Below, one piece after another: positions 1 to 36,307 of a stretch of 64,000 nucleotides of DNA. The notes under the pieces were generated by a model that saw nothing but the letters and a program-made list of their open reading frames with translations, searched no databases and was not told the origin of the DNA. Source of the DNA: Botryllus schlosseri (Eukaryota); NCBI GenBank assembly GCA_051294905.1, contig CM119372.1, forward strand, positions 17,424,001 to 17,488,000. The letters run 5' to 3'. Every line of letters begins with the position of its first letter. The stretch's first letter is position 1. Both the position numbers and the translations under genes were made by a program.

Positions 1-1744
1 ACAGGATTAGAAATTTGCAATTGAACTCTCGAATCGAGTTCACATAAACGGTTCACCCGCAACAATGGATGCCTGGTCATCAATCAATGATAAATCATTG
101 TGTTCAACTATAGATAACTAACCTATACGGTAGGTTAGTTATCAATAGTTCAATCAACAACTTGATAATTTATTACGCTAGCGCAGGTCACCGTCATTTC
201 CGGCTAGCAATGGTGAATACCGCTCTGCCATAAATTCTCATCAGCACTTGAAGAAACTGCTCCGCACTGCATAGACGTCATTTCAGCCTGATTTCAAACA
301 CCTTTCGGATCAGGTGGAGATGAACCGTATCACCACACATAAATAAACTTCGTTCGACAGCCTACATTTTATTGTGACGCCATACCTCCATATTTTTGTG
401 TTGTGACTCTTAAGCCAAGATTTTTAATATGCGGCTCGCGCATGAAGCAGGTTGCCCAGAATGCCCACCCTTGCTATATGATATCTCCTAGTAAAGCGTG
501 ATCTCATGGGGATGGCCTAGGCCGTTTTCGAAGCATCTGGGCCATTGCACGTTAAGGTAATATGCCCATTGCCCATTCACATCAGCTGCTTCTCCCTCGA
601 TGGAAAGCTGCTACCATCACCGAAACCGGTTCAGCTAGCGAGTAATAGTGATGTTGGGCCCCGGAGAATAGCTTGTTTCTAAACAATAACAACCAATATT
701 TGAAACTGCAATCCATTTCATCGTTTGAAAACGCGTACTCCTGAAATCTCAAATCGCCGCGTGTTGGTGAGCCCTGCTCTAGGGTTTATCTATTTGTATA
801 ATCTGACTCCAAAGGTGTCGGTGCCTCACCAATCACGAACCTCTCCACACGTCCCTGTACTACGCGTAGACACTAAACACTCACTGGCGTGTTTCAAGCC
901 GGCTTTACGCGAGTCGGGTCTTATTTTGAAAGATAGAATATAATAAAAGTATTTATAACACAGGACTCCGTATATATTCTTCTCTATAAACGTTCGATTG
1001 TTAACACATCAACATATGTGGAGGTCAAGCTGGTACAGCTTCCAAGTTGCGCCGTGTATCTGCCGAACACCTATTCAGCGATCCCTTCCAGTTCTAGGAA
1101 AAAAACAAGACTCCGTGACGGTTGCGTTGCGACATTGTAGAAAAAATAGGCGGGAGGGTTTATATTGTGATTCCTTTTCGAACTATACACCTGATAGATA
1201 TTCTTTTTTGAATATTTAGTAGATATCGTATGTAATTCTTCCACGCCGATAATGGTAATTATTGGTAAAGTGGTCGATTTGGCCAGTCTACGTATCAAAT
1301 CCTGACCTCCCAACCCGACGGCGAACGCATGGGCCAGTCATCACAATACTCTTTTATATTTTCTATATCCAATTTTTCGACTAGGACAATGCTAGGCGAT
1401 CTTTAGATATATGATTGCCACCCGCAAGTTTAAATAAAGTCATGTTGCATTCGGCAAGTGGTCAGCTTAAGAGCCTACCTGGGTCGAAACGGCCGGCAGA
1501 CAGGCGGGACTTAAGGCAATCCACTGATGCTTAGTTTCACGCCGTATCAATTCCTCGGTCATGAATGCCATACGATTCTCTAATACGGACACCGGTTACT
1601 ACAGATATCGTATAGAATAAGTATACATTCAGTTACTTCGCAGTTCCTATGCGAGTTAATGGGAGCCTATAAGCTATATTATATTTCGGTACTATCCCAA
1701 GTCCCAGCGAAAAGACTACTATGTGTTATGTATATGCTACTCAC

Positions 1745-3955
1745 CTTCTTGCAGCTCGGCAATGTCAGATTCAAGGGCACCTACCGCATCACCCTGAATG
1801 ATTTATAAGATATGTTTAAGGACGACAGGCTTCGTGTGGTATAGTTTAAAAGTAGTATCTAGTGCACTATTCGATCAGTCGTTCCATTCTGTGCACTTGG
1901 GGAAGAGACTGGCACAGTGTCCTAAAACTCTAATTGAATACCACGCCATTATGGAAGCAGTGTTGGGATCAAGTAATTAAAGGGGCATTGCCCTCTAAAA
2001 ATCATGTGGTCTCAAATTAAAGGGCAAAACGAAAAAAAATTGGCAGCAGCCGTTTTATTCAGAACACCATCGTAATGGAGCTGCAATTTATTGAAATTTC
2101 AACAAGAACATCGCGCGTCAGCAATCACGCAGAGTTCGAACTTTATATAGTTGTCAATGTTGTCATCCAATGTTATGTAGGAAGTATGTCGTAGTGTCGT
2201 ACACAACAGAAATTGAATACACTAGGCCCGATTTTGACATAAATATCCTGACTGAACATCTTCCGTTGAACGCGGTATCTAAACCACCTTGGCGTGTAGC
2301 CTACGACATATATCCTTCGTAACATCGGCTGACAACTATATAAAGTTCAAACTCTGCGTGACTGCTGGAGCGTGAAGTTCTTGTGGAAATTTCAATAAAT
2401 TGCAGCTCCATTACGGTGGCGTTCTGAAGAAAACGGCTGCTGCCAAATATTTTTCGTTTTGCCCTGCAATTTGAGACCACATCATTTTTAGAATGTAGTG
2501 CCCCTTTAACTTTGAGTCGCAAATCGAGTCAATAAAAACTTCATTGATGTGAAGCCTAATTTTTCTAAGTCACATCAGGCCAGTTTTAAAAGTGACTCGG
2601 GTTGAATTAAGTCATCTCGGGAATCCCGAGTCAATTTCAAGTCATTAAATATTCCCTTTGACTCGCTTGAGTTCACGTGCGAATGCAATACCGCGTCAAT
2701 GTGTTGAACTTTTTTAGACATGTCATTTTAGATCTACTAAGACTATATGAGTCGCAGGTTATGTAGAATAGTAACTCATTTCGTCGCTCGCAGGGTGTAT
2801 CACGAGAGTACAATTCCAGCGACGATTACCAAAACGCTGTAAAGAGGCCCTAACCAAATTTCACTGAAATGGACCAGAACAGTCTCAATTTTGCGGTTAG
2901 TAAGCATCATTATACAGTTCAACTGAATGATAAATGTATGTGTGCGTTTGGTGCCCTATCTCGTAAACGTTGATGCCAACTTACGGATCATTTCACATTT
3001 GTCATGTGTCGAGTTCGAGTCAAGTCAAGTCAAGTCATCTTAGGGTAGTGACTTTGATCAAGTCAAGTCGTCCAAACACGTGACTCGAGCTCCAACTGCC
3101 CCAACACTGCGTGGGATCAGGTTCGACCCCTGGCTATGACGATATGCTATAAGTTAGATGTTTATCTGGACTCCTTGTCACTGTCTGCACTGTAACTGCA
3201 GTGTCTTCAAAATCACCCACTGGCTCAAGGTGAAAATTAGCAATAAAAAGACAACGGCGTTCAGATGTGGAGGAATAACATAGGGGTAAGGAGAGAGAGC
3301 AAGAAAAGGCGTCCCCCCCCGATATAGCGAGCTCTATTAAGTGTTTGCACTTAATAAAATGAATGCCGTGAAGAGCATGATCTTTAGGTATAAAAACACC
3401 ACTACCGTGATGATAATAATGATGATATTAGCAATTATCATTAACATTATGTTATGTAATTTTGCCATATTTATGGGTTTTCGCCTGAATAGGCGAAGAG
3501 CAGTATATTCGCTGAAAGAACTTCGATATTCCGTTTAGAATTCTAGAGGAATGCCAAAATATTATCACATCAGCAGCCAATACTCGTGACAATTCCAAAA
3601 ACTCAAACAACTGACACCAAGTTGACAATAAGATGAAATCAATTCCACTTACCATATCCCCGTAGTATCCCGTAGCACTTATTGAGTGTCCAACAAGAAT
3701 TCCACTGCAAATAAAAGATCATTCCTATAAATATATTGTGACTATGTGTCGCCATCAAATTATGAACTGTTACTTGTATTTGTAGTATTCCCGGATGATG
3801 TTATTGGCGGCACTCATCATTTTATTAGCGGAGGCGCCAATGGGATTGAGGAGGGCTAGTACCTGTTGCTGGGTGGTGCGTTTCGCTGCTCCTTCGACAC
3901 ACTCACACACCAACAGAGTGGCCAGTAAAAACGCTACTACTTTTTTCGACAACAT
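1745..3955 (-). CDS. Styelin-like secreted antimicrobial peptide precursor 1 (spliced; last exon unresolved)
   Basis: Exons 3955-3774 (donor GTAACA, phase 2), 3704-3653 (TTTGCAG acceptor, GTAAGT donor, phase 0) and 1793-1745 (CATTCAG acceptor, GTGAGT donor, phase 1). They give MLSKKVVAFLLATLLVCECVEG|AAKRTTQQQVLALLNPIGASANKMMSAANNIIREYYKYNGILVGHSISATGYY-G-DMGDAVGALESDIAELQE... Exon phases and the YGDM motif match the paralogue at 10207. Confidence 0.8.
1958..3109. mobile_element. hAT-like MITE, family B (CAGTGTTGGG...CCCAACACTG, GACTT/AAGTC subterminal repeats)
   Basis: TIRs and TCAAG repeats are shared with the copies at 19963 and 42232. It sits in an intron of the peptide gene and is interrupted by a TTAA element. 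Confidence 0.7.
1981..2505. mobile_element. Foldback MITE with TTAA TSD (Kolobok-like)
   Basis: TTAA at 1977-1980 and 2506-2509; AGGGGCA...TGCCCCT termini; imperfect inverted arms of ~210 bp. Confidence 0.8.
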
Positions 3956-4230
3956 CGTTGGCTTCGGTCACACATAAAAAGAATATTACATTGTCATTTC
4001 GTAGTATGTAGTAGGCCTATACTGTAAGCCGATATAGAGGAATAGAGCTTCGTACCGTCTTCATTCATTATATCTATTAAATGATCGCTTTTCTACGGAT
4101 GATTTACACGGCAATTACTTTGTCATGATATAAAAGAATCTTCCTGCCACTTACATCTCAAAGCAGTCCCGAAAGCCCTAAAAAGCCGGCAACAAGCTGC
4201 GAATCTATGACTTGAGCAACTCAGTTATTG

Positions 4231-4460
4231 CAAGACACTTACCCCGTCGATTTTCGTCCACAAGTGACTCAGACCAAAATGGAAATTACTCCATCGCGGG
4301 TCGCACGACTGAATTTCGCCTGGCGGATGCGCAAGGATAATTAATTGAATTTCCTGATCTCGTGCCATTCTATATCAGGATGTGGCCTCCTCATTTCCGA
4401 GGACGGGAGTGATGACGCTCGTTTGTTTATGCTTACCGATACAGTGAAAATCCGGCTGTC
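4231..4460. promoter_or_regulatory. Putative promoter/enhancer of peptide gene 1, duplicated at 8355-8580
   Basis: Directly upstream of the minus-strand gene. Motifs retained in both copies: TGACTCA (AP-1) at 4265, ATTTCCG (ETS) at 4393, TGTTTAT (Fox) at 4424, TGAAAATCC (kB-like) at 4445. Confidence 0.45.
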
Positions 4461-4855
4461 GATCGAAATACTCAAAATGACATCTGAGTATTTGGTGTAA
4501 TAATCCAGTGCGTTGTGTTTCATACCATTATCTGAATTCATGCAGCCCTATTATACATATATATATATTTCTTTATACTGCTAATGAATTGGTCACACTA
4601 ACTTGCAATGTAAATGTATTGCTGCGTTGTGCTATACATTCAACTCGTACTCACAGCGCGTCTTCGGCAATTACTACAAGAGCTGAGTGCAATCCTATAG
4701 TGAATCCTATAGTCGAGTATCAATTGTAATGATTCCAGTCGAGTAGTAAGAGTTGCTTTTTAGAGTATCGAAAATTTACGCCTTCGCGTCGAGAGTAATA
4801 TTTTAAAGAAATATAGTTTGAATACTGTGTTTGAATACCGTTGGAGCCTCGAAAC

Positions 4856-6350
4856 CAGAGTTGGATCAATTACCATAGTTCAGTTCAATTACAATTACAA
4901 TTACAATTACTCCCTTGCATGTTTCAATTACATTACAATTACAATTTCTTAATGCTGAAAATATCGAATTACAATTACTGTTAAACATGTAATCAACTAC
5001 AATCACAATTACAATTGCAATTACAATTACTGTTAAACATGTAATTGATTCAGTAGAGAGGTGTTCTTTGACGACCGTAGCGACGTAATTAGCAACAATC
5101 TCAAGCTATTCAGTTTTCATTCATGATAAGTAGAATATTCCTTAATTAAAAGAAAACTCGAACGTATTCGAGCTATTCCTCCTAATCATGAGTACTGAAA
5201 ACTACAAACACAGAAAAATGTTTCAAGCGACTGTTAACAACCAAAAGTTTGAGCGACTAACAGCGAATAGGCTACAGGACAGTCACTGAAATGTAATCAA
5301 ACGATTTGGCTACTCCGAGCTGAGGGAGGATAATGAAATGTAATTGGTGAGGAGTCAGCGATAAGGATGATACCGATAAGATGTGTAAAATTAAAATAAA
5401 TGCATAAGGAAAGAACCTCCTGATAACTACGAATTACAGCATTTTGGTTCGCATTTACATTTTCACTTGCTCGGAAACTGTTAAATTGCATTTGATGAAC
5501 ATTAGGGTGCCAACATTTCTGGCCCCAGTAAATTTGGCCAAGAGTGGAGGCAAGATTGGGATAACATCTCAACAAATGCGTGATCAAGTTTGATGAAGCC
5601 TTTATTGGAAACTTGAATTTATTTTTGCAATTGTTGCAGCAAGCCTCGGTACTGGTCAGAGATTTAAAAATAAAACTATGACTGTGGTGTAGGAAATGGT
5701 TCAGTACAGGTTTCAGAATGTTAGCAATCCTTGCAGATAGTTTGATGGTATGGAAGGTTATGACTGTTGCTGAGAGATTTATCCAATATGAAATTCGGAC
5801 TATACGCAGACTATACGCGCCAAGCGCGGAAAATATTTCAGTTTACCGGAGCTTCGCGCTCCCCTTCAGATGTTTTCACGCCGCCCAAGGGGGGCACGCC
5901 CCCCAGTTTGAGAACCACTGGTTTGGACTATATTGTAATTCACAAAGTTTTCTGTTGCTACTGAAGTATGGGAAACAGTTTAGCGAATTATCTTGCTATA
6001 ACGCGGCACGCATAGAATACCGATGTAAATAGGCTAATTATTTCAGGTGGTGACTGCTGTGTACTAAGTCCTTAAGGCCTTGCGGCCCCTCGTCGTCATC
6101 CTGGTCCGTACCGGATTTTCACTGGTGTGACGAATAAATGGTTGATTGATTGATTATTTTATGTTGTGATTGTCAGGTTTCCACAAAAACTAATTGAAAT
6201 TGTATTTGAGCAAAATTTTTATCACATTACAATTACAATTACAATTACACAAAATAGAAATGCTTCAATTACAATTATAATTACAATTACATGAAAAAAT
6301 GTAATTAATTACATTCCGCTCAATTACAAATTACAATTGATCCAACTCTG
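4856..6350. mobile_element. hAT-like non-autonomous element with (ACAATT)n subterminal arrays
   Basis: TIR CAGAGTTGGATCAATT...AATTGATCCAACTCTG; exact 8-bp TSD CTCGAAAC. Confidence 0.85.
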
Positions 6351-6457
6351 CTCGAAACCCCAGTCATAGCCGTATCTCAGCATTGACAAACATCTTACAG
6401 AAGGCTGGCAGTGTTCAGACCTCGAAATAGTCATGTTCCGAAAACAATCATCTAGCA

Positions 6458-7059
6458 CAGTGTTTCATAAACTTTGTAGGGCTCGTGCCCCTTGAGCTGT
6501 CATGAAATCTTTCTCGTGTCCCCTATCCACGATCGTTACAGCACTTTGTCAAGCCACTCTAAATGCTGATATCGGGTCCTCATAATGTTTCAACACATCT
6601 TTTGTTGATTTCCTGGACAGGAGACATTTCAGCTACTGAAGATATTAATGTCGAAGGTTTAGCCGATGTGTTGTGATTTTAGGGTCCCGATGTTGATCGC
6701 CGCCGGCGGTGCAGCGAAATGCCACTGGTCTTGGCGTGTTCCGGGGTGGAAGTTACGGCCAGCGCCGACATGTCGTAGTGTGACAGTCCATCCCCAGCAG
6801 TTCTGACACCCGTGGACTAAAGAAATATAGCCATCATAAGGCAGCATTCCCTCATATTCGCGAAAAAGTTTAGACTCATCTCTGTGACTTATGTTGTATA
6901 TTTTATTATAAGAAATCCGGCCAATAATATTCCCCCTTAAGCTGATTTGCAAAATAATACAAGTAATTAAATAGCGTAAAATTGCACACTGCATCTCATT
7001 CTCCTAGCTGGGTACTTTGTACCCCAAGGGGTCCGTCGACCCCTGTTTAAGAACAACTG
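6458..7059. mobile_element. hAT-like MITE
   Basis: CAGTGTTTC...AACAACTG termini; exact 8-bp TSD ATCTAGCA. Confidence 0.75.
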
Positions 7060-7628
7060 ATCTAGCATGACGTGGGACTGGGATAATAATTTTACTCGTG
7101 GCCTTACGAATAAACATATTTTAACTTTTTAAGTTTTTTTTTACTGTTATTACATTATAATAGATATAGTACTCGAATAATCGACTTCGAATCGAACCAA
7201 ACATATACTAGATTCTGCCCAGCCCCACCAATTGCTTCGTTAGCAAAAAAGCGTCTTGCGAATGACGGTATTTTCATGAGTAGCCAAATTATGATATGAC
7301 TCCATAAAAACAGTCTGACAGCTGTAAACGTGGACACTGGACATTCCAGTATTCTTTTAGATTTGGCTTATTCACCGCGGCAGCCCGTTTGTGTTTCTAT
7401 TTTTGTACTGTTTTGCTCTCGTCTTACTAGATTACATTATGGTTGAAATGATATGTTGTGCTATATCTATTATGCTATATTTCGTCGTCTTCGTCGCTGT
7501 CATCATCATCAGTATAGCGACATTGATTTCATCCCCCTCACGGTATTGAACAAATGCATCTGCACATTTTTGTCGAAGTGTCTGTCATGTATTATTCACG
7601 ACGGGAGGACCATATACTTAGACGCTAT

Positions 7629-8068
7629 CAGTAACAAAGTGGTTCTACTTTTTGTACTACTCAAGTAAGTTTAGCTTACTTGAACTACTAACCCCTGCGA
7701 TTTTAGACTACTATCACTTCTACTTGAACAGTTATTTAAGCACAACCACTTAATTTTTGAACTGTGGATTTTGAAAAGTAGAAAGTAGTGTGAGGACATG
7801 TTTACATCACTATGTAGGGACATTGCTCATTTTGTGTTAGTCGCGAATATACATCTATAGTAATATCGAAGGTAGCCGCTGCCGATTAATTGTTAAACGT
7901 ATGTAATCCCTCGACCAAATCTACTTGTTGAAATAGCCTACTTACTTTATTCCATGTAGTTCTGGCATATCTTGAAAATTGTTACTTCTTCTAATAGAGT
8001 AGAAATTAACGGGGTGACTTCTACTTCTATACTTGGGTAGCAAAGCTGACTGCTTTGTCCACTTCTGC
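7629..8068. repeat. Old dispersed MITE family rich in AGTAG/CTACT motifs
   Basis: The CAGTAACRAAGT..TTCTACTTTTT..CTCAAGTA head recurs at ~54139 (+), ~53522 (-) and ~58006 (-). Similar decayed blocks lie at ~22300-22750 and ~56100-56390. Confidence 0.55.
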
Positions 8069-8354
8069 ATTTATCATGCTTCATCTCGTTATTCCGTTTC
8101 TAACGGAAGACCTATAAGATATTGTTCACCAGTTTTCGCTGTCCAGACGTTACGGAATTACAAAAATATCTAATAAGGAGAAACTAACGGTACAGTAGAG
8201 AAAGGGGTTTAAATTTTTTTATAAGACAGTGTCCAAGTTAGCTTTTGCGAACCGGACCAAGCTTTCAGTATGAATTGAGTATTCGTTTGTATACTTCCAG
8301 AGTGCCTCATCAAAGCTTGGGAGTCGGCTTTATTCAGTGTTGAAATCTACATAC

Positions 8355-8580
8355 CAAGACACATATCCCGTCAATTTTCGTGCACAAGTGACTCATATGA
8401 ATTTATGTTATTCTATCACGGACCGTCTGACTGATTTTGAACAGGTTGATTCGAAGTGATATCGATTGAATTGGCGGATCCTATGGCATTCTCGTTTAGG
8501 ATATGGCCTCCTCATTTCCGATGGTGGCCGAGAAAACGTGTTTTTGTTTATGAGTATCTAATAAATGAAATTCCAGCTGT
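8355..8580. promoter_or_regulatory. Diverged direct copy of the 4231-4460 block
   Basis: Colinear similarity with CAAGTGACTCA and TGGCCTCCTCATTTCCGA retained exactly; also TGTTTAT and TGAAATTCC. Confidence 0.45.
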
Positions 8581-9654
8581 TTGTTGAGGTAGACTTGGCT
8601 TTATGACAAGAGCACAAATATTCGGTTTTCAATCAATAAAGTGAAGATTATCTCAAATATATTAATTAGTAAATAATATATGTTAGTTCTCCCTTGTTGC
8701 GTCGGATTTCCCACAACAATTCGAATTTGTGGCCTGCTGGCCAACAACAAACTGACTGTTCGGGTATTGATACGCTATGCTTTGTGAACGATGGACCTAC
8801 GATACACTAATATTTACGATGTCAAATAAGTGTGTGAGAAATAGAGTATTTGTGATAACCGACGTAATTTTTCTGTCCATAAAGGCATTGTGGATTGGGT
8901 GACATTTGCATGAACAATGCACATTAAGCAGCCGAGTTATTGTATGATCCAATTGCTTGAAAACCAACACATAAGAGACCCACATCTCTCACCACATTTG
9001 GCGTATTTTCTTCGACAACATTTGTCGTAATACATGTATAGTTATATTCTCCTTGATGCGCTATAACTGTTTGCGTCCAACTTTCTTGGTCCCACCATGC
9101 TAATATTCACACTGTCGAATGTTGTGCCCACGAGTTTGAGCAAATAATTAAACTCGAGAGAGAGTATAGCACGGGCCGGCAACTCCTGAATCCTGATACA
9201 CGAGATCACTTTTCACGGCATCCCAAACGCTTTGACACGCACGTGATTTCTTACCAATTTCAAAAATGCGACATTACTTTCCAAAATGAGCGAACGCCAC
9301 ATTTGCGCGGTTTTACTCGATTGCCTACCATAGTTTTCGCGTCACGATATGCGAGTACACCAAAATACAAGGACAGAGTGTGCCCGAAACTTACTTGCAA
9401 ATCGATATGTTCAACTAGTTCTTGATATTATCGATTTTGGGTTGAGTTACGGGACCGACAATACTAGTCTTCCTACCAATTATTATGTGTACCAACTGAA
9501 TAGCCCGCTGTTTACATTGAGTTCGTATGGAATGGGTGCTATGGTGTCTACTTCCGACGATCTCCCATCAGTATAATGTAAACAGGATAACGATGTACTT
9601 ATCGATTCTTTAGCAGAAAGCTAATCGGTCCTGCGTGCTGGTATAGCTGGCTTG

Positions 9655-9872
9655 TGAGTCATTTGATCAGAGATCTGCAACACGGAGGTGAGATTTGCCG
9701 TTGCTGTTAAACTTTGTCTTGGAACAGTGTGGGTTGATGTGATTGAGCATACGGGCCGTTGTAGCATATCGTGTTCGGTGGAACTTTCCTCGTTTTATTC
9801 GGTTGTATAAGTTCGTGTTGGGCATTGAGTCTTGATTCTCAAATCATTAGCATGACTTAAGACGACGTAAGA
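9655..9872 (+). promoter_or_regulatory. Putative promoter and non-coding first exon of peptide gene 2
   Basis: TGAGTCA at 9655, GGAACTTTCC (kB-like) at 9780, TATAAG at 9806, donor GTAAGA at 9867. An acceptor TTACAG lies just before ATG 10207. Confidence 0.4.
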
Positions 9873-10206
9873 TCTTGTTTACCGTCAGAAACTATAATAA
9901 CTTTGCGGCTTTGAGAAATTCTACAGTACGCTACGACATCTGCATAACACAATATTCGAGTCTACCGTTATACTGTACTAGCAACGAAAGGGGAAACAAT
10001 GGTGTCTCCGTTTGATTTGTTGTGCGTTGGGCAGCGTATCCAGCGACGGTCCGAGAAAAAGTCCATATTTACTGTGTTGGGCATCATGCTAGTAGCGCAT
10101 CTCCTTTCAAATATATTTGACCACAGTTGCTTGAACCGATAGACCTATTTGGTCCTAATGCAGCAATAAATAACACGCTTGACCGTGTGATATTACAGGA
10201 GGGATC

Positions 10207-10715
10207 ATGAATTTCAAAGCTGTGGCTGTAGTGCTTCTGATAGCTTGCCTCGTGATCGAGGACTGCCATGGTACGTACCAATTTGGGGGCCAAAAGAATT
10301 CTGCTGCGCTAAAGAAGAAACTACTTGGACATTTGAACAAGATCTTAAAACTTTCCGCCTCCATCGAGTCAAATGCCAACAAAGTCATCTCAAACTACAA
10401 TCGCTTGAAGTGAGTAAGTAGTTGGTTAGTATGTATAACTGTAGCTAAATCGACCGTGTCTTGATATTAAGAACCTACTTTCTGTCCAACAAAGTCACGA
10501 TTACCGGATTCATTTATGGTGACATGGTAGGCATGATATATCTTTTTACAGCTTTTCGGGGATTATTGATTCTTTCTTTTTATTTAGGACAGGGCTATTG
10601 ATGAAATGGCACAAATCACGGATAAATCAGGTATGGAATCAATTAAAGTAGGACTAACTTTCGCTTCAATATTAACGTCGAGCCAGGTGGAATATTCAAA
10701 ACAATGCTATCGTAA
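10207..10715 (+). CDS. Styelin-like secreted antimicrobial peptide precursor 2
   Basis: Exons 10207-10409, 10472-10526, 10588-10630 and probably 10687-10715 (GACTAAC branch site upstream). They give MNFKAVAVVLLIACLVIEDCHG|TYQFGGQKNSAALKKKLLGHLNKILKLSASIESNANKVISNYNRLKTYFLSNKVTITGFIY-G-DMDRAIDEMAQITDKSGGIFKTMLS*. Introns are 62, 61 and 56 nt; AATAAA at ~10903. Confidence 0.82.
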
Positions 10716-11459
10716 TTCTGAAATGATCGGTTGAAAAGTATGGATCCAGACATCGGGATTATGACAACACAAAGAACCACTCTGGCATGTTGATGACGAA
10801 AAGTTATCCATATTTTTCCGTTACGCCGTTTTTGACAATATATGAGACCGTGTGAGGCAACATGCGAGTGTCAAATCGAGCCCCATAACCTCAACGTACC
10901 AGAATAAATGTTACTTTCAAACAAACTATGTGAGACATAATAGATCGTACAAGATAGCCGTCATCCAAAGTTTGGTCAGTTCTTTCAAAGTAAACAAAGG
11001 AGATGTCAATTCATAAAATGAATGGTTAGTGTCATATTCAAGTACCGCTACCAGAAACGATATCCAATCTCTAATCCTATCCCGTACGACAAAGCAGTCA
11101 GCACTCAGCATCCTCTCGGTAGTGAACATTCTGAACAGTTCTGTAATCCTTGTAGCGTCTGGGCATTCACAACTATGTGTGAAATTCTGCCACTTTTCTT
11201 TCAGCAACGGAGTAAAGAGATGAGGAAAATATGATCCACCTGGCGCAGTTTGAAATTTAGAAGATACTTCGATGAAACGTGTGCAGATGTGTTTGTTCGA
11301 TACTATATGGGATGAAAATAAACAGAGTCCCTGTGTTGATGAATTATGAGTATATGGTGATTGAAAATAGCATCGAGACATATGGTTCAATGTACCATTT
11401 CTACACTGATAACAAAATTATAGAATAGTAAACGAAAAGCTTACCACTGTAGTGAGAAG

Positions 11460-20361: not shown

Positions 20362-23300
20362 AACAACAACAAGAATACAACAACAACGTATCTATGTTTG
20401 TCTCCATGTTTTAGACGGCTCAGTGGTAACATTGCGGAGTGATCACCTTTACCAACCCTCCTGTATGATTCAAGTCCATATCAATTTGTTACAACTTCTC
20501 GAGGCTTCGTATTCGTATTGGCTTATATAATAACAGACTGTAGCATAGCTATAAAGTTAGACGCGTATTTTATTTGCGGTTCTACGTGTGCATGATAGGC
20601 GCCTTCTTGCATGCATATTAAACTTTATATTAGTTATTTGATGCAAGATAAATAACAAATTATTCTGTCTTTCACACAGCTAGTGCAATGTAATGACTTT
20701 GAATCGTCACTGATACTTCGAAAATTCAATTTGACTCGAATTGTGACTTGACTCGTGACTCGACTTGACTTGACTTGACTTGACTCGAGTCACATCCAAA
20801 ATACGAGTGACTTAACTTGACTCGAGTCACTTTCGAAAATCGATTGACTCGTGACTCGAAGGTAGTGACTTGATCCCAACACTGGTGTAATGGTTCAAAT
20901 CCACTGCACTAGTTATATTGATATGAGCAAAGGTCAAGAAGCCCACAGCTCTGTGACGTTACAAATACGTCTGTGTCCTACGGTTAGTTATCTACAGTGA
21001 GTGTAGCTCTTGTAGCCCTAACCCAAACTAAAATCGATTTATTTTACATGCAACCTGCGCTGGTGCGCACGGTCTTTTTAGTTTAATCCAATTTATAGCC
21101 AGTCCGATACACGACACGTTTTGTCGCTAGAACTAGATTCAGAACAAATCCAAACATGGAATAGAATAGTTCAAGCTAATTTACGTTACAAAGCCATCGT
21201 ACTTCGTAGTTGCGGTTGTGATGTCGTAAGCACTTAAAACCTCATTATCCTCGCCGCATGGGCATTTTAATGCGTGTTCAGGAATTCCACTGAATATACC
21301 TCACTGCTGGTTCATTATTCTGTTTCTCGATAGATTGGTTGGCTGGAAAACCTATTGCAGCATAACAATCAACATCTCTTGGCTCGTTGGTGACGATTTC
21401 AGATGAAAAGCGCCTTGTAAGACTACATAACGAACCATTTTACTCTCAGTGTCCCCAATCGCCCAGTTTGTGCCAAGGGGACGCTGGCGCACGCTTTGCG
21501 AACTAGAACTCTAGCATGTGTTGGAAATGTATCGGTTGCGTTTGATGGCGAATTCTGAATCATGTCGGTTCCGGCAATATTCGTTCTTCATCAATGGATA
21601 ATCCCATAATTAGGCCTTGGCATGGCATTGAAAATAGCAATTAAATATACCGCGGAGAAGTGATGCCTTACTACAAAAGCCATGGAGCCACGGGATCTTG
21701 ATATCCGCGAAAACAACTACTCACATTTTACTATATAGTGCGCATCCTATCCGGTCTTCGGGCAACTTTTCGACGCTTAATATAAAGATTCAGTGCATCT
21801 CTATTTTGTAATTGGCACCCAAGCATGATTGTATAATGTATACATAGGTAAATAAGTGTTATCTCCGTGGTCATAATCGGAAACAGCGATACACTGACTC
21901 TTCCACAAGGGTATTTCGACCATATAGCACGAACATATTCCACGGTCACGACCCTTTCAAAGTGCAGACGGCCATAAACCTCTACCGGTTGACCATCATC
22001 GTGATACGATCATCGCAGATATGGCCAGCAAGAAGATGACTTGCGAAGAATTCTTGCCAGTATTTGCAAAGATCCAGAACGAAGCCCAGAAAGGAACTTT
22101 CGAAGACTTCATGGAAGGAATGAGAGTATTTGATAAGGACGGGAACGGTACCGTGATGGGGGCAGAAATAAGACACGTCTTGACAACTCTCGGTATAACT
22201 TTTGTCAATTTTTATAGAGAAATTTGCGCAGGTGGTCAGGCTATTCGTATAGATGATACTCATTTATATTTAATGCCGTAAATTTATATTCAATTCAAAC
22301 AGTAGAAGTAGCGCTTTTCCATGTATGTCAAAACTACTTGTAGTAGAGTAATCGAGTTCTGGAAATTACTCGAAGTAGTTTCAAGAAATAGATTGGGATA
22401 TTGTTTTGCAGACTTTTATTGATCAATTGCCGGTGATAACTTTTAAAATTGCGAGAATCCACTAATCACTCCGCAAATAGGTGCAATTGTTAGAATGCCA
22501 TCATATTCTAACGATACAGGTGCTACCTCGCATGGCTCTCGTGCGACCACTCGCAAAAGTGATACTTATTTGTCCAGACGCCACCTTCTACTTGAAAAAT
22601 CTAAATTGCACAAAGTAAGTAGTTTGTCCTCAAAAACTCATAACGTAGAAGTAATTCACATTCATCACGACTTCATGAGTAGGGCAGATAGACAAAACCT
22701 ACTTCTTAACCCACAGAACGTAAAACGTAGAGGTACGTCGTTACTGGCTACGTCTGGAAATTGGCATTCCCATTAGTTTCAATCCATAACCATCTGTTCG
22801 TGATTCAGCGGAGAAACTTACTGCGGCTCAAGTTTCGGAAATCATGCAAGGCCAAGAAGATTCGAGTGGCATCATAGTTTCTGCAGGTAACATAGCATCC
22901 AAATGAGTGAGGAAATAGTTCCGTGATTTTGACTGAACTATTGTCAAACGTCCGCCAACTAGCTATTGATGGAGCTCTCGCTCTAAAATCAGACACTTTC
23001 ATCTGCGACATTCCGACGTTTTCAGTATATACTATACATGATACCACTTCGGAACTAAACTACATGTTGTATGATAATAGTAATTGTAAATGTTGTTTTC
23101 TATATGTATATTGTCTGTGTAGTTGGTCTACTGGTGATGTCTAAAACAAAACAATAAAAAAAACTGTTTTAAACAAGGTTCATGTTTTATACATCAGTGT
23201 TTCACATGCCTTGACATTTTAAATACAGTCCTATTGATAATCCTTCCGTCTTCAGTTCGTGAAATCGCTGCAACAAGCCACTGTTATATGGTTCATAGGG

Positions 23301-33533: not shown

Positions 33534-33620
33534 AAAGTATTATCCATCCTTAATATAGCTGAGCCGTACTAATCCGATGCCGCAAATATAAAGTCAAACT
33601 GGCACCAATGTATCCTACAG

Positions 33621-36307
33621 ATGCACAGAAAAATGATGCAGGTACTGCCGCATGTATGCGTGATGTATATTGCTTTATTGCATACTATGGAGCTCGCCCA
33701 CGGCCAATTTCCCAGACTTTGCACAACTACCGCAGCATTATCGGATCGGGAATGCTGTCCAAGCGTGATAGATGAATATGGTAGATCATCCAAGTGCGGA
33801 CACCACGTCGGCAGGGGGTCGTGTCAAGATATAGAGTTTGAAAGATATGAATTCGATCCTAAGCTCACAATTGATCTGATATTTGATGATAGAAAGGACT
33901 GGCCAAGATCATTTTTTGACAAAGCATGCACGTGCAATGGAAATTTCGACGGGGTAGACTGCAGTGTCTGTAAACCCGGATTTTCGGGGATTCGATGTGA
34001 GGAGAGGAAAAAGAATATAATTCGAAAAAACATTTTATCTTTGTCCGAATCCGAAATGGAAATTTTCATTTTAAACCTTAACAAGTCAAAACACACAATC
34101 AGTGAAGAATATGTCATATTGACCACGAGTTACGATCGAATTCTGTTGGGTGACGATCCGGTTTTTACGAATATATCAATCTACGATTTATTCGTATGGA
34201 TGCATTACTACGCTTCGCGAGATAATTTAGTGCTCGACCTCGATGGTGTCGGCAGCAATAACAAAGCCTTCACGAGTATCTTTGAAAGGTCTAGCGTACA
34301 ATCCGTGAATTTGAAAATTAGTAGTATTTGGGATTACGCCCACGCAGGCCCATCTTTTCTGCCTTGGCACCGGTACTTTATATTAAAATGGGAGGAGGAA
34401 TTCGCTCGCAACGTGGCTCAAGACCCGAATTTCGCGATCCCATACTGGGATTGGACCGAAAGTAGCTCGTGTGAGGTTTGTAACAACAGACTTTTCGGTA
34501 GAAAAGATTCAAATCGTCCCGAACTGATTGACGGAAATTCGTTGTTTTCCGATTGGCAAACAATCTGCAAAAGGCATGGCGATGACGATTACTTGCTTAA
34601 GGGCAGACAGTGTGATGGAACACCGGAAGGTCGAATGTTACGTAATTACGGCGAGTACGACTCCACAGCCAGCTCTGGTCTTCCGACATCACGCGACGTA
34701 GAGAACGTGCTTCAAGTCTCTGAATACGAGACAATACCGTACGACGCGACGTCTGACTACAGTTTTCGCAATGTCCTTGAAGGATTTGCTGATCCGAATA
34801 GCGGGAAAGCGTTGCCAGGATATAGCACAATGCACAACGCAGTGCATCTTTTCATGAATGGAACTATGTCTGAAGTAGGCTCGTCTGCGAATGATCCGAT
34901 ATTTATCGTTCACCACGCGTTTGTCGACGGGCTTTTTGAGGAATGGCTTCGGAAACATCCGCTAGATGGGGTTTTGAATGACCTGAATGCGCAGCGTGAA
35001 AGTATTGCCACGGGTCATAATTTGCAAGACTTTATGGTCCCGTTTTTTCCTTTAGTCCGTCAGATGGAGGGCTATCATTCGTCTGACCGGCTTGGCTATT
35101 CTTACGACTTCATCGAGGACGGAGAAAGTAGCGGCATCACTTACAGTGATCATGATAAACAAACGATAGCAGTGTTGTTGGATGCCGACGCAAGTTACGA
35201 TACTGTGCCTTCGGGCGGGTTTGGGGATGGCCTACCGGCCCCCTATTTCGAAGCTCTTACTGACAACCAACAACCTCGCCAGGTGATCGATGACATGAAG
35301 TGGCAGAATCCAAACATGGAAAGCCGCGGTGGAAACGCAGTGTTGCACGAAGCGAGGCTAGACGGCAATCACGCAGGTGGAGAAATAAATTCCCATGCAC
35401 CAACGGCCGAATCCGATGGGAAGCCAGCAGAAGGTTTCGATGTCGGCAGAAGGGTAAACACAAAATGGGAGCATCTCTTGTCGATTTTATACGATGGAGG
35501 GAGATACATCGCTCAACTTCCGATTCGAGATAAAATTCTATTACTACTGCTGGCTATTGTTACTGCCGTTTGTGTGGTATTTTGGGTTTTACTGTGCTGC
35601 AAATGCCGACGACTTCTGCCAGCAAGAAGGTCCAGATTGTCAAACAAAGGTAAGGTTTGAAATGACGGTAAGTGTGCTCGGCTCATGTGCCTACGTCGAA
35701 ACCACATTTCACAAGATGAGACATTTTCTTGGGGGCATTCTCAAGGACTTAGTTGTGAGATTTACCAGAAGACATTGGATAAAATAATCATACATTTGTT
35801 AGATCTTAACATTCGGTTGGTCGATACTCTCCTGTTTCATATTTAATTGGGAAAATACAATCCTTCAGAGTGTATAATGCATGGGAATATTTATCGAAAT
35901 ATAAAAGCGGTCAGAATTTGTGAAATGGTCTCCCTTGCTAACCACATGATTGGTCATGGGATGGCACATAATGTAGTCGCATATAATTGTCTCTGGAGAT
36001 ATGATATCGCTAATAATAAGGATTACTTTCACAGAATAGCATATTTCGGAAAACAACTATTATTCAGCCCATGCATTACAGTACATGCAATTCATGCAAT
36101 GTCCTGATATACAAACGTGTTTCGGAGACCGTCGACGTTATCATATTTGTCTATTCCACAGATTCTATCGGGCATAACTGTGTTTGTTTACAATCTGAAT
36201 ATGACGATTGTGAAAATCAAGCTCTGCTGAATGACTTCAACGGCTGCAAAACAATTTGTCGATCAAAGAAAAACCGGAATGTAAAGATTCTGCTTGACGA
36301 AATCTGA
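33621..36307 (+). CDS. TYR: Tyrosinase (melanogenic, membrane-bound), 2 coding exons, ~724 aa
   Basis: Exon 1 33621-35649 (donor G|GTAAGG) plus exon 2 36162-36307 (TTCCACAG). Signal peptide ending HG|QFPRLC, Cys-rich EGF-like region, CuA (WMHYY...HAGPSFLPWHR), CuB (HNAVH...ANDPIFIVHH; HH as in TYR rather than LH as in TYRP1/DCT), TM helix, tail with ENQALL. Confidence 0.93.

Follow-up and report, generated by a model that had tools for sequence, protein, structure and literature searches.

A divergent pair of spliced Botryllus schlosseri genes as candidate precursors of unusually long ascidian helical antimicrobial peptides

Introduction

The ascidian styelins are made by blood cells, are antimicrobial in high salt and have precursors with an acidic pro-piece that begins with Asp-Met. 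Styelins A-E of Styela clava (Lee et al. 1997, Zhao et al. 1997 and Taylor et al. 2000), known to us through their citations in PMC8659048, PMC8719109 and PMC7387483, are made as precursors in which a signal of 22 residues precedes a peptide of 31-32 residues, a Gly serving as amidation signal and a pro-piece of 26 residues, and styelin D carries 6-bromo-Trp at position 2 as well as four 3,4-dihydroxyphenylalanine (DOPA) residues (PMC8659048). Styelins are reported to be cut N-terminal of Asp and clavanins N-terminal of Asp-Asp, with no basic motifs at these sites (PMC7387483), and a KHK motif common to styelins and to botryllin of Botryllus schlosseri has been called conserved (PMC9966394). 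Here we describe two head-to-head genes, termed gene 1 and gene 2, in a 64,000-nucleotide stretch of the B. schlosseri genome (the window; C2:17424001-17488000 of a 495.5-Mb assembly of 219 contigs), which a previous reading of the DNA letters alone (the original prediction) had taken for amidated peptides of the styelin family with an extra N-terminal helix.

The layout of both genes agrees with that of published styelin precursors and of the linear cationic alpha-helical antimicrobial peptide (LCAMP) precursors of Ciona, which leads us to assign them to this broad class. As judged from their sequences, they may represent a new family of ascidian LCAMP precursors with processing at a Gly|Asp-Met boundary and a role in defence, gene 2 being the stronger candidate. 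We put the probability of this reading at roughly one half, and the genes are filed under the ascidian LCAMP class as a new, still unproven family and not as proven styelins.

Gene structure and transcription

The window consists of AT-rich animal DNA (about 40% GC) and contains two divergently transcribed genes, which are genuine and spliced (Table 1). Exon models were derived by direct reading of positions 1500-11000, location of landmarks and translation of the proposed exons, and were compared with raw RNA reads from four runs of the same species label (X14, X17, X18 and X20) placed on positions 1-11200 of the window; junction counts given for X18 are the sum of both orientations. In gene 1, the joints 3704/3774 and 1792/3652 between the coding exons are crossed by 2682 and 2415 reads in X18, and the joint to the last exon (1093/1745) by 1840 reads in X18, 262 in X20 and 34 in X14, and the last exon is also backed by the read depth over positions 749-1122. 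Upstream of the start codon, the joint 3961/4243, whose CT..AC ends correspond to GT..AG on the minus strand, is covered by 25 (X14), 258 (X18) and 207 (X20) reads and connects a 5' non-coding exon, which is also backed by the read depth at variant places between 4275 and 4336.

In gene 2, template-switch oligo letters stand loose before position 9661 in 1826 reads of X18 and 54 of X14, and this position is therefore taken as the transcript start (cap site). The joint in its 5' untranslated region (5'UTR; 9685/10197, with cut +2) is crossed by 3532 reads in X18, and the coding joints 10409/10472 and 10525/10587 by 7666 and 5098 reads, respectively. Reads continuing past 10630 match the window from 11205, directly behind a ...ttcag acceptor (5154 reads in X18, 108 in X14 and 207 in X20), and the gene 2 protein therefore ends three residues past exon 3. 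The fourth exon that had been proposed for gene 2 at 10687-10715 is thus rejected as the main form, while minor use of it may occur, as 44 weaker joints were recorded outside the listed ones.

All confirmed introns are of the GT..AG type on the strand of the respective gene. Counted from the ATG, the first three coding exons measure 182, 52 and 49 nt in gene 1 and 203, 55 and 43 nt in gene 2, giving intron phases 2, 0 and 1 in both genes, and between the 5'UTR intron and the start codon lie 6 nt in gene 1 and 8 nt in gene 2. The spliced proteins comprise 101 aa and 103 aa, respectively. The RNA reads therefore bear out several elements of the original prediction, namely the head-to-head spliced pair with all junctions of coding exons 1-3, the equivalent intron phases, and a second coding exon that ends in Y-G-D-M in both genes and is followed by an acidic exon. 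The terminal exon of gene 2 had to be replaced, and the last exon of gene 1 and both 5' non-coding exons are newly added.

Transcripts of the pair are abundant in some samples and near absent in others. The 11.2-kb stretch attracted 44,839 of 9,981,950 records in X18, about 0.45% of the reads, compared with 4,457 of 9,211,280 in X20, 1,930 of 12,895,792 in X14 and 113 of 6,908,460 in X17. Exon-1 bins of gene 2 and gene 1 reach depths of approximately 5183 and 1470 in X18 and of 4.6 and 1.1 in X17, and the levels of the two genes co-vary across the four runs, with a ratio of 0.9 to 9.

The variants that the RNA reads carry in coding exons are all either synonymous or conservative. In addition, the reads contain an alternative form of gene 2 exon 3 (10588-10630), in which 6 of 30 bases differ and the resulting residue changes are conservative. 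Among X18 reads continuing beyond gene 2 exon 2, about 38% carry this form (3181 loose ends versus 5098 joints), which was not found in the 495.5-Mb assembly at up to three mismatches; its probable source is a divergent allele of the sampled animals, not a paralogue.

Paralogy and relatives

Gene 1 and gene 2 are old paralogues. With the signals removed, their proteins align with a local score of 66, which was reached by none of 3000 shuffles, and BLASTP gives 29% identity over 87 aa. Furthermore, the two genes have four intron positions in common, including the one in the 5'UTR, and a short block, ...GAGTCC(C)TGTGTT..., recurs close to the ends of their 3'UTRs (900-1000 on the minus strand and 11290-11340 on the plus strand). 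It is either a further trace of common origin or a common 3' processing or regulatory element.

No third member was detected in the window by tblastn with both spliced proteins, and a six-frame search of the whole assembly with gene 1, gene 2 and the two related proteins introduced below (P0001 and P0003) as queries recovered no further paralogue; as this search is insensitive enough for the gene 2 query to miss gene 1, two members is a lower bound. With P0001 as query, a single weak match (E 0.95), interrupted by stops, also turned up on another contig. A genome-wide pattern of G-D-M followed by a splice donor matched 10 places, one of which is gene 1 and nine of which are unrelated by translation, versus 15 places for the control.

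Outside the assembly, a HMMER search of 1.84 billion representative proteins with the gene 2 exon-1 product identified P0001 (55% identity, E 1.4e-13), and P0003, a protein resembling gene 1, came up in a profile search (profile E 3.4e-4). Both come from assemblies of public runs, where they stand as unspliced reading frames in genomic DNA, and both stop exactly at the exon-1 boundary. The best match of P0001 in the B. schlosseri assembly is gene 2 and that of P0003 is gene 1, which makes them look like the orthologues of gene 2 and gene 1, respectively, from another organism. It is thus probable, on the basis of these alignments, that each gene has an orthologue elsewhere, in which case the gene duplication would predate that split. 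A third match, P0002, an 820-aa tandem-repeat protein with six matched stretches (E 9.6e-6), was discounted as a repeat-boosted hit.

Further searches added no relatives. Word-index searches of a collection of 5.8 billion clusters with each exon-1 product alone returned no protein, the ESM Atlas gave no usable match, and none of 317 pattern matches in JGI metagenome contigs proved to be a relative by tblastn. Neither exon-1 product matched the Cecropin family (PF00272) in Pfam. The pair takes about 0.45% of one RNA library, yet protein searches list only two exon-1 fragments and one doubtful repeat protein, which is a practical lesson for annotation.

In P0001, residues 66-74 read A-Y-Y-Y-G followed by four Arg, right after the predicted signal cut. 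In sequence, this stretch resembles a site for amidation and convertase cleavage, from which a very small amide rich in Tyr would be released; neither the basic site nor the N-terminal Tyr cluster is kept in gene 1 and gene 2.

Predicted proteins and comparison with ascidian antimicrobial peptides

Both proteins begin with a predicted 22-residue signal of the length found in styelins, as originally proposed, and the cut after residue 22 (V-E-G| in gene 1 and C-H-G| in gene 2), which was placed by the -3/-1 rule, is also predicted in P0001 and P0003. Neither protein contains Cys after this residue. The signal is followed by a middle part of 53 aa in gene 1 (charge +4, five Tyr, no Phe) and of 61 aa in gene 2 (charge +9, four Tyr, three Phe), which reproduces the mature lengths and charges of the original prediction, and by an acidic tail of 25 aa (charge -9) and 19 aa (charge -4), respectively. 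Middle part and tail meet in both genes at a Gly followed by Asp-Met, which coincides with the phase-0 intron and, at the level of sequence, places a putative amide donor directly before Asp. Dibasic and furin sites are absent at the proposed boundary in both proteins. The ends of the middle part are rich in Tyr (...G-Y-Y and ...F-I-Y before the Gly, and T-Y-Q-F at the start of the gene 2 peptide), and the relatives contain A-Y-Y-Y or A-Y-Y. For the gene 2 exon-1 product, AlphaFold2 predicted helices at residues 3-25 and 32-67 from a four-sequence alignment, with a mean predicted local distance difference test score (pLDDT) of 72 and block means of 82-89 over residues 41-68.

The LCAMP precursors of Ciona (Ci-MAM-A, Ci-PAP-A and others), as far as they are described in PMC7387483, share with the present proteins the order of signal, cationic helix and anionic helical pro-region, the lack of Cys after the signal, and acidic residues instead of basic motifs at the boundary. 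Some entries have a hydrophobic residue, Gly and Asp at the junction, as is the case here, and the acidic helix of Ci-PAP-A contains A-D-M followed by letters rich in Asp, Glu, Ala and Leu, which by eye resembles the gene 1 tail. In contrast, the signals of gene 1 and gene 2 are unlike the two printed consensus signals, when compared by reading and not by alignment.

In the same source, candidate precursors are defined as short secreted proteins (50-100 aa) that have a signal, lack Cys downstream of it and contain a helical cationic segment with an 18-residue window of set limits (hydrophobicity 0-0.6, moment 0.1-1.0, net charge +3 to +10) and an anionic helical region at the C-terminal end (charge -10 to -3). 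At 101 and 103 aa, the proteins encoded by gene 1 and gene 2 lie marginally above this length limit, with a signal present and no later Cys. In our own re-implementation of the window screen, which uses hydrophobicity values entered by hand and not the HeliQuest server, 26 cationic windows pass in gene 2, 14 in P0001 and 10 in P0003, and 15 and 5 anionic windows pass in gene 1 and gene 2, respectively. The cationic segment of the gene 2 exon-1 product is also predicted to be helical, as it falls within the modelled helix 32-67. By this screen, gene 2 passes the numerical window limits, whereas gene 1 lies outside the charge range.

Botryllin, from B. schlosseri itself, was called 'styelin-like' on the basis of 30-37.5% identity over its short mature part (PMC9966394), and it demonstrates that precursors of styelin relatives can be longer and divergent. 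By its description, it differs from the products of gene 1 and gene 2 in having a 158-aa precursor with a 23-aa signal, a 37-aa peptide with a charge of +11, and a retained KHK. Clavanins of Styela clava are amidated helical blood-cell peptides, reported to be cut N-terminal of Asp-Asp (PMC7387483), but are set apart by their described size of 23 aa and their richness in His.

Proposed processing and alternative readings

If gene 1 and gene 2 encode LCAMP precursors, the 22-aa signal would take each protein into the secretory pathway, where the Cys-free middle part would fold as a long helix and the acidic tail would act as a neutralising pro-piece. The tail would then be removed before Asp, at the conserved Gly|Asp-Met boundary on the phase-0 intron, and the exposed Gly could serve as amide donor, which is the route reported for styelins and also agrees with the Asp-boundary processing suggested for the Ciona LCAMP precursors. 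The released peptide may act on microbial membranes, with a clearer case for the gene 2 type than for gene 1. If the products are active, they would represent a new and unusually long family among the helical, salt-tolerant peptides that sea squirts use in defence. Furthermore, the locus provides a handle on how such precursors are cut, as its conserved Gly|Asp-Met lies on an exon border and lacks a basic site.

Several observations weigh against this assignment. Gene 1 contains no 18-residue window with a charge of +3 or more, and the pro-protein as a whole has a net charge of -5. Both predicted peptides are modestly amphipathic: 12 of 2000 shuffles attain the maximum hydrophobic moment of gene 1 (0.59), and 253 of 2000 that of gene 2 (0.50). 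Moreover, the predicted peptides are far longer than styelins, clavanins (23 aa) and botryllin (37 aa). The HMMER search with gene 2 exon 1 over the 1.84 billion representative proteins yielded no named family, and Pfam assigned none to either exon-1 product at E values up to 1, the later exons being too short for such a search. The large protein searches and AlphaFold2 took the exon-1 products as input, and everything beyond exon 1 comes from local analysis.

The original prediction went further and regarded the two genes as true members of the styelin family, that is, as long-form homologues that descend from a common ancestor with the styelins of Styela clava and have a further helix at the N-terminus. 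This view is doubtful, although it accounts for a number of features. Like styelins, both genes combine a signal of 22 aa, a helical peptide free of Cys, a Gly directly before Asp at the boundary, an acidic pro-piece and Tyr clusters, and the order of the parts agrees; in length, the gene 1 tail of 25 aa is close to the 26 aa of the styelin pro-piece, and the gene 2 tail of 19 aa is not. The DOPA residues of styelin D derive from Tyr, and five and four Tyr occur here at the same relative place. Secretion, the Gly before Asp-Met and the acidic tail were correctly foreseen, whereas the styelin hallmarks of the peptide itself are missing. The predicted peptides exceed the 31-32 residues of styelins, they are not rich in Phe (none in 53 aa and three in 61 aa), gene 1 is weakly basic, and KHK is absent from both spliced proteins as well as from P0001 and P0003. 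Trp is lacking in both proteins, hence also at position 2, where styelin D carries 6-bromo-Trp.

Motif comparisons, which cover short styelin motifs, also give little to this view. For the printed 12-mer of styelins A and B, 1742 and 2155 of 3000 shuffles score as well as the observed alignments, which is chance level. The likeness to a 13-residue styelin C motif, which the original prediction had cited for gene 2, speaks for styelin ancestry, with a score of 25 across the junction of exons 1 and 2, but turned out to be weak, as this score was reached by 106 of 3000 shuffles and that of gene 1 by 513 of 3000. In the HMMER search with gene 2 exon 1, no styelin-sized match was listed; of the styelin-like part, this exon covers only about 12 residues. 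The 495.5-Mb genome contains no coding site for S-V-S-N-F-x-K-K-H-K, the core motif printed for styelins A and B, and allowing up to one mismatch gave one (unrelated) site versus four for the control. Finally, a Gly|Asp boundary followed by an acidic tail also occurs in several Ciona precursors (PMC7387483, Table 1), among them candidates unrelated to styelins, and is therefore not specific to this family.

It is unlikely that the proteins instead remain uncut, as small secreted helical proteins in which the acidic tail folds back on the basic helix to form a hairpin or bundle, or pairs with the partner product, and which would serve as abundant components of granules, matrix or tunic, or as carriers. 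Such a function would fit a boundary that lacks dibasic and furin sites, the net acidic and weakly amphipathic nature of gene 1, the co-variation of both genes in the four runs, and an abundance that is typical of structural or secretory products. Against this, Gly-Asp-Met is kept exactly in paralogues of 29% identity and in the divergent RNA allele, which argues for a functional site, and cleavage before Asp without basic sites has a precedent in ascidians (PMC7387483).

Beyond the preferred assignment to a new LCAMP family, one could speculate that the locus is the first recognised case of a conserved, styelin-related two-gene 'long styelin' locus of ascidians, in which the acidic pro-piece is an exon module joined at the phase-0 intron on Gly|Asp-Met. 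The same module might then lie behind styelins and possibly behind precursors of the Ci-PAP type with their A-D-M, a single protease cutting before Asp might act on all of them ahead of amidation, and the Tyr-rich ends might be converted to DOPA. We consider this extended scenario quite improbable.

A role as precursors of Tyr/DOPA peptides, whose Tyr-rich ends would be oxidised by tyrosinase for cross-linking, metal binding or cytotoxic chemistry instead of attack on membranes, is very improbable, since the N-terminal Tyr cluster and basic site of P0001 are not kept in the two genes and a neighbourhood of 23 kb is weak evidence in an animal genome, even though Tyr clusters stand at both ends of the middle part, P0001 has what resembles a textbook amidation/convertase site behind its A-Y-Y-Y-G, a tyrosinase gene lies at 33573-35660, and the blood cells of tunicates are known to contain DOPA peptides (PMC3039461).

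Surroundings of the pair

Table 1. Coordinates of features in the window (position 1 is the first letter of the stretch).
Feature	Position	Strand	Remarks
Gene 1, 5' non-coding exon	4243..~4285	-	Upstream end approximate, some reads to ~4340
Gene 1, first coding exon	3774..3961	-	ATG 3955..3953; predicted signal and most of helical middle part; ends in phase 2
Gene 1, second coding exon	3653..3704	-	52 nt; ends ...T-G-Y-Y-G-D-M, phase 0
Gene 1, third coding exon	1745..1793	-	49 nt; acidic; ends in phase 1
Gene 1, last exon	900..1093	-	Seven added residues, mostly acidic; stop 1073..1071; 3'UTR; 3' end approximate
Gene 2, 5' non-coding exon	9661..9687	+	Transcript start 9661; template-switch oligo letters
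Gene 2, first coding exon	10199..10409	+	ATG 10207; predicted signal and long basic helix; ends in phase 2
Gene 2, second coding exon	10472..10526	+	55 nt; ends ...G-F-I-Y-G-D-M, phase 0
Gene 2, third coding exon	10588..10630	+	43 nt; acidic; ends in phase 1
Gene 2, last exon	11205..11340	+	Three added residues; stop 11213..11215; AATAAA 11317; 3' end approximate
Copy of gene 1 promoter and 5' exon	8355..8580	-	blastn 70% identity to 4231-4459; donor GT changed to AT
EF-hand reading frame	21928-22281	+	Exon-sized; best Pfam E 8.8e-05, below curated cut-off
Tyrosinase reading frame	33573-35660	+	Single exon, 695 codons; Pfam central domain E 3.6e-39

Between the two genes lies a copy of the gene 1 promoter and 5' exon (Table 1), which is probably the relic of a lost gene copy; RNA depth is zero over 7107-9350 in all four runs. 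A 23-bp block, GGATRTGGCCTCCTCATTTCCGA, located approximately 100-140 bp upstream of the gene 1 start region, is almost unchanged in both copies and, from its sequence conservation, is a candidate regulatory site.

The second coding intron of gene 1 measures 1859 bp, 30 times the length of its gene 2 equivalent (61 bp). It contains inverted repeats of about 60 bp at approximately 2040-2100 and 2390-2460, about 300 bp apart, which look like a small inverted-repeat transposon and may partly account for the length of this intron. A stretch of about 1.5 kb between the genes (~4838-6362) has inverted ends (~4838-4870 and 6330-6362), both with arrays of the hexamer ATTACA just inside, and low RNA cover, and is probably a transposable element.

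The EF-hand frame, which by our reading resembles the myosin light chain type, shows that the pair sits among ordinary animal genes, and the tyrosinase frame, 23 kb from gene 2, additionally shows a weak EGF-like match (E 0.01, below the Pfam cut-off) and a C-terminal hydrophobic stretch.

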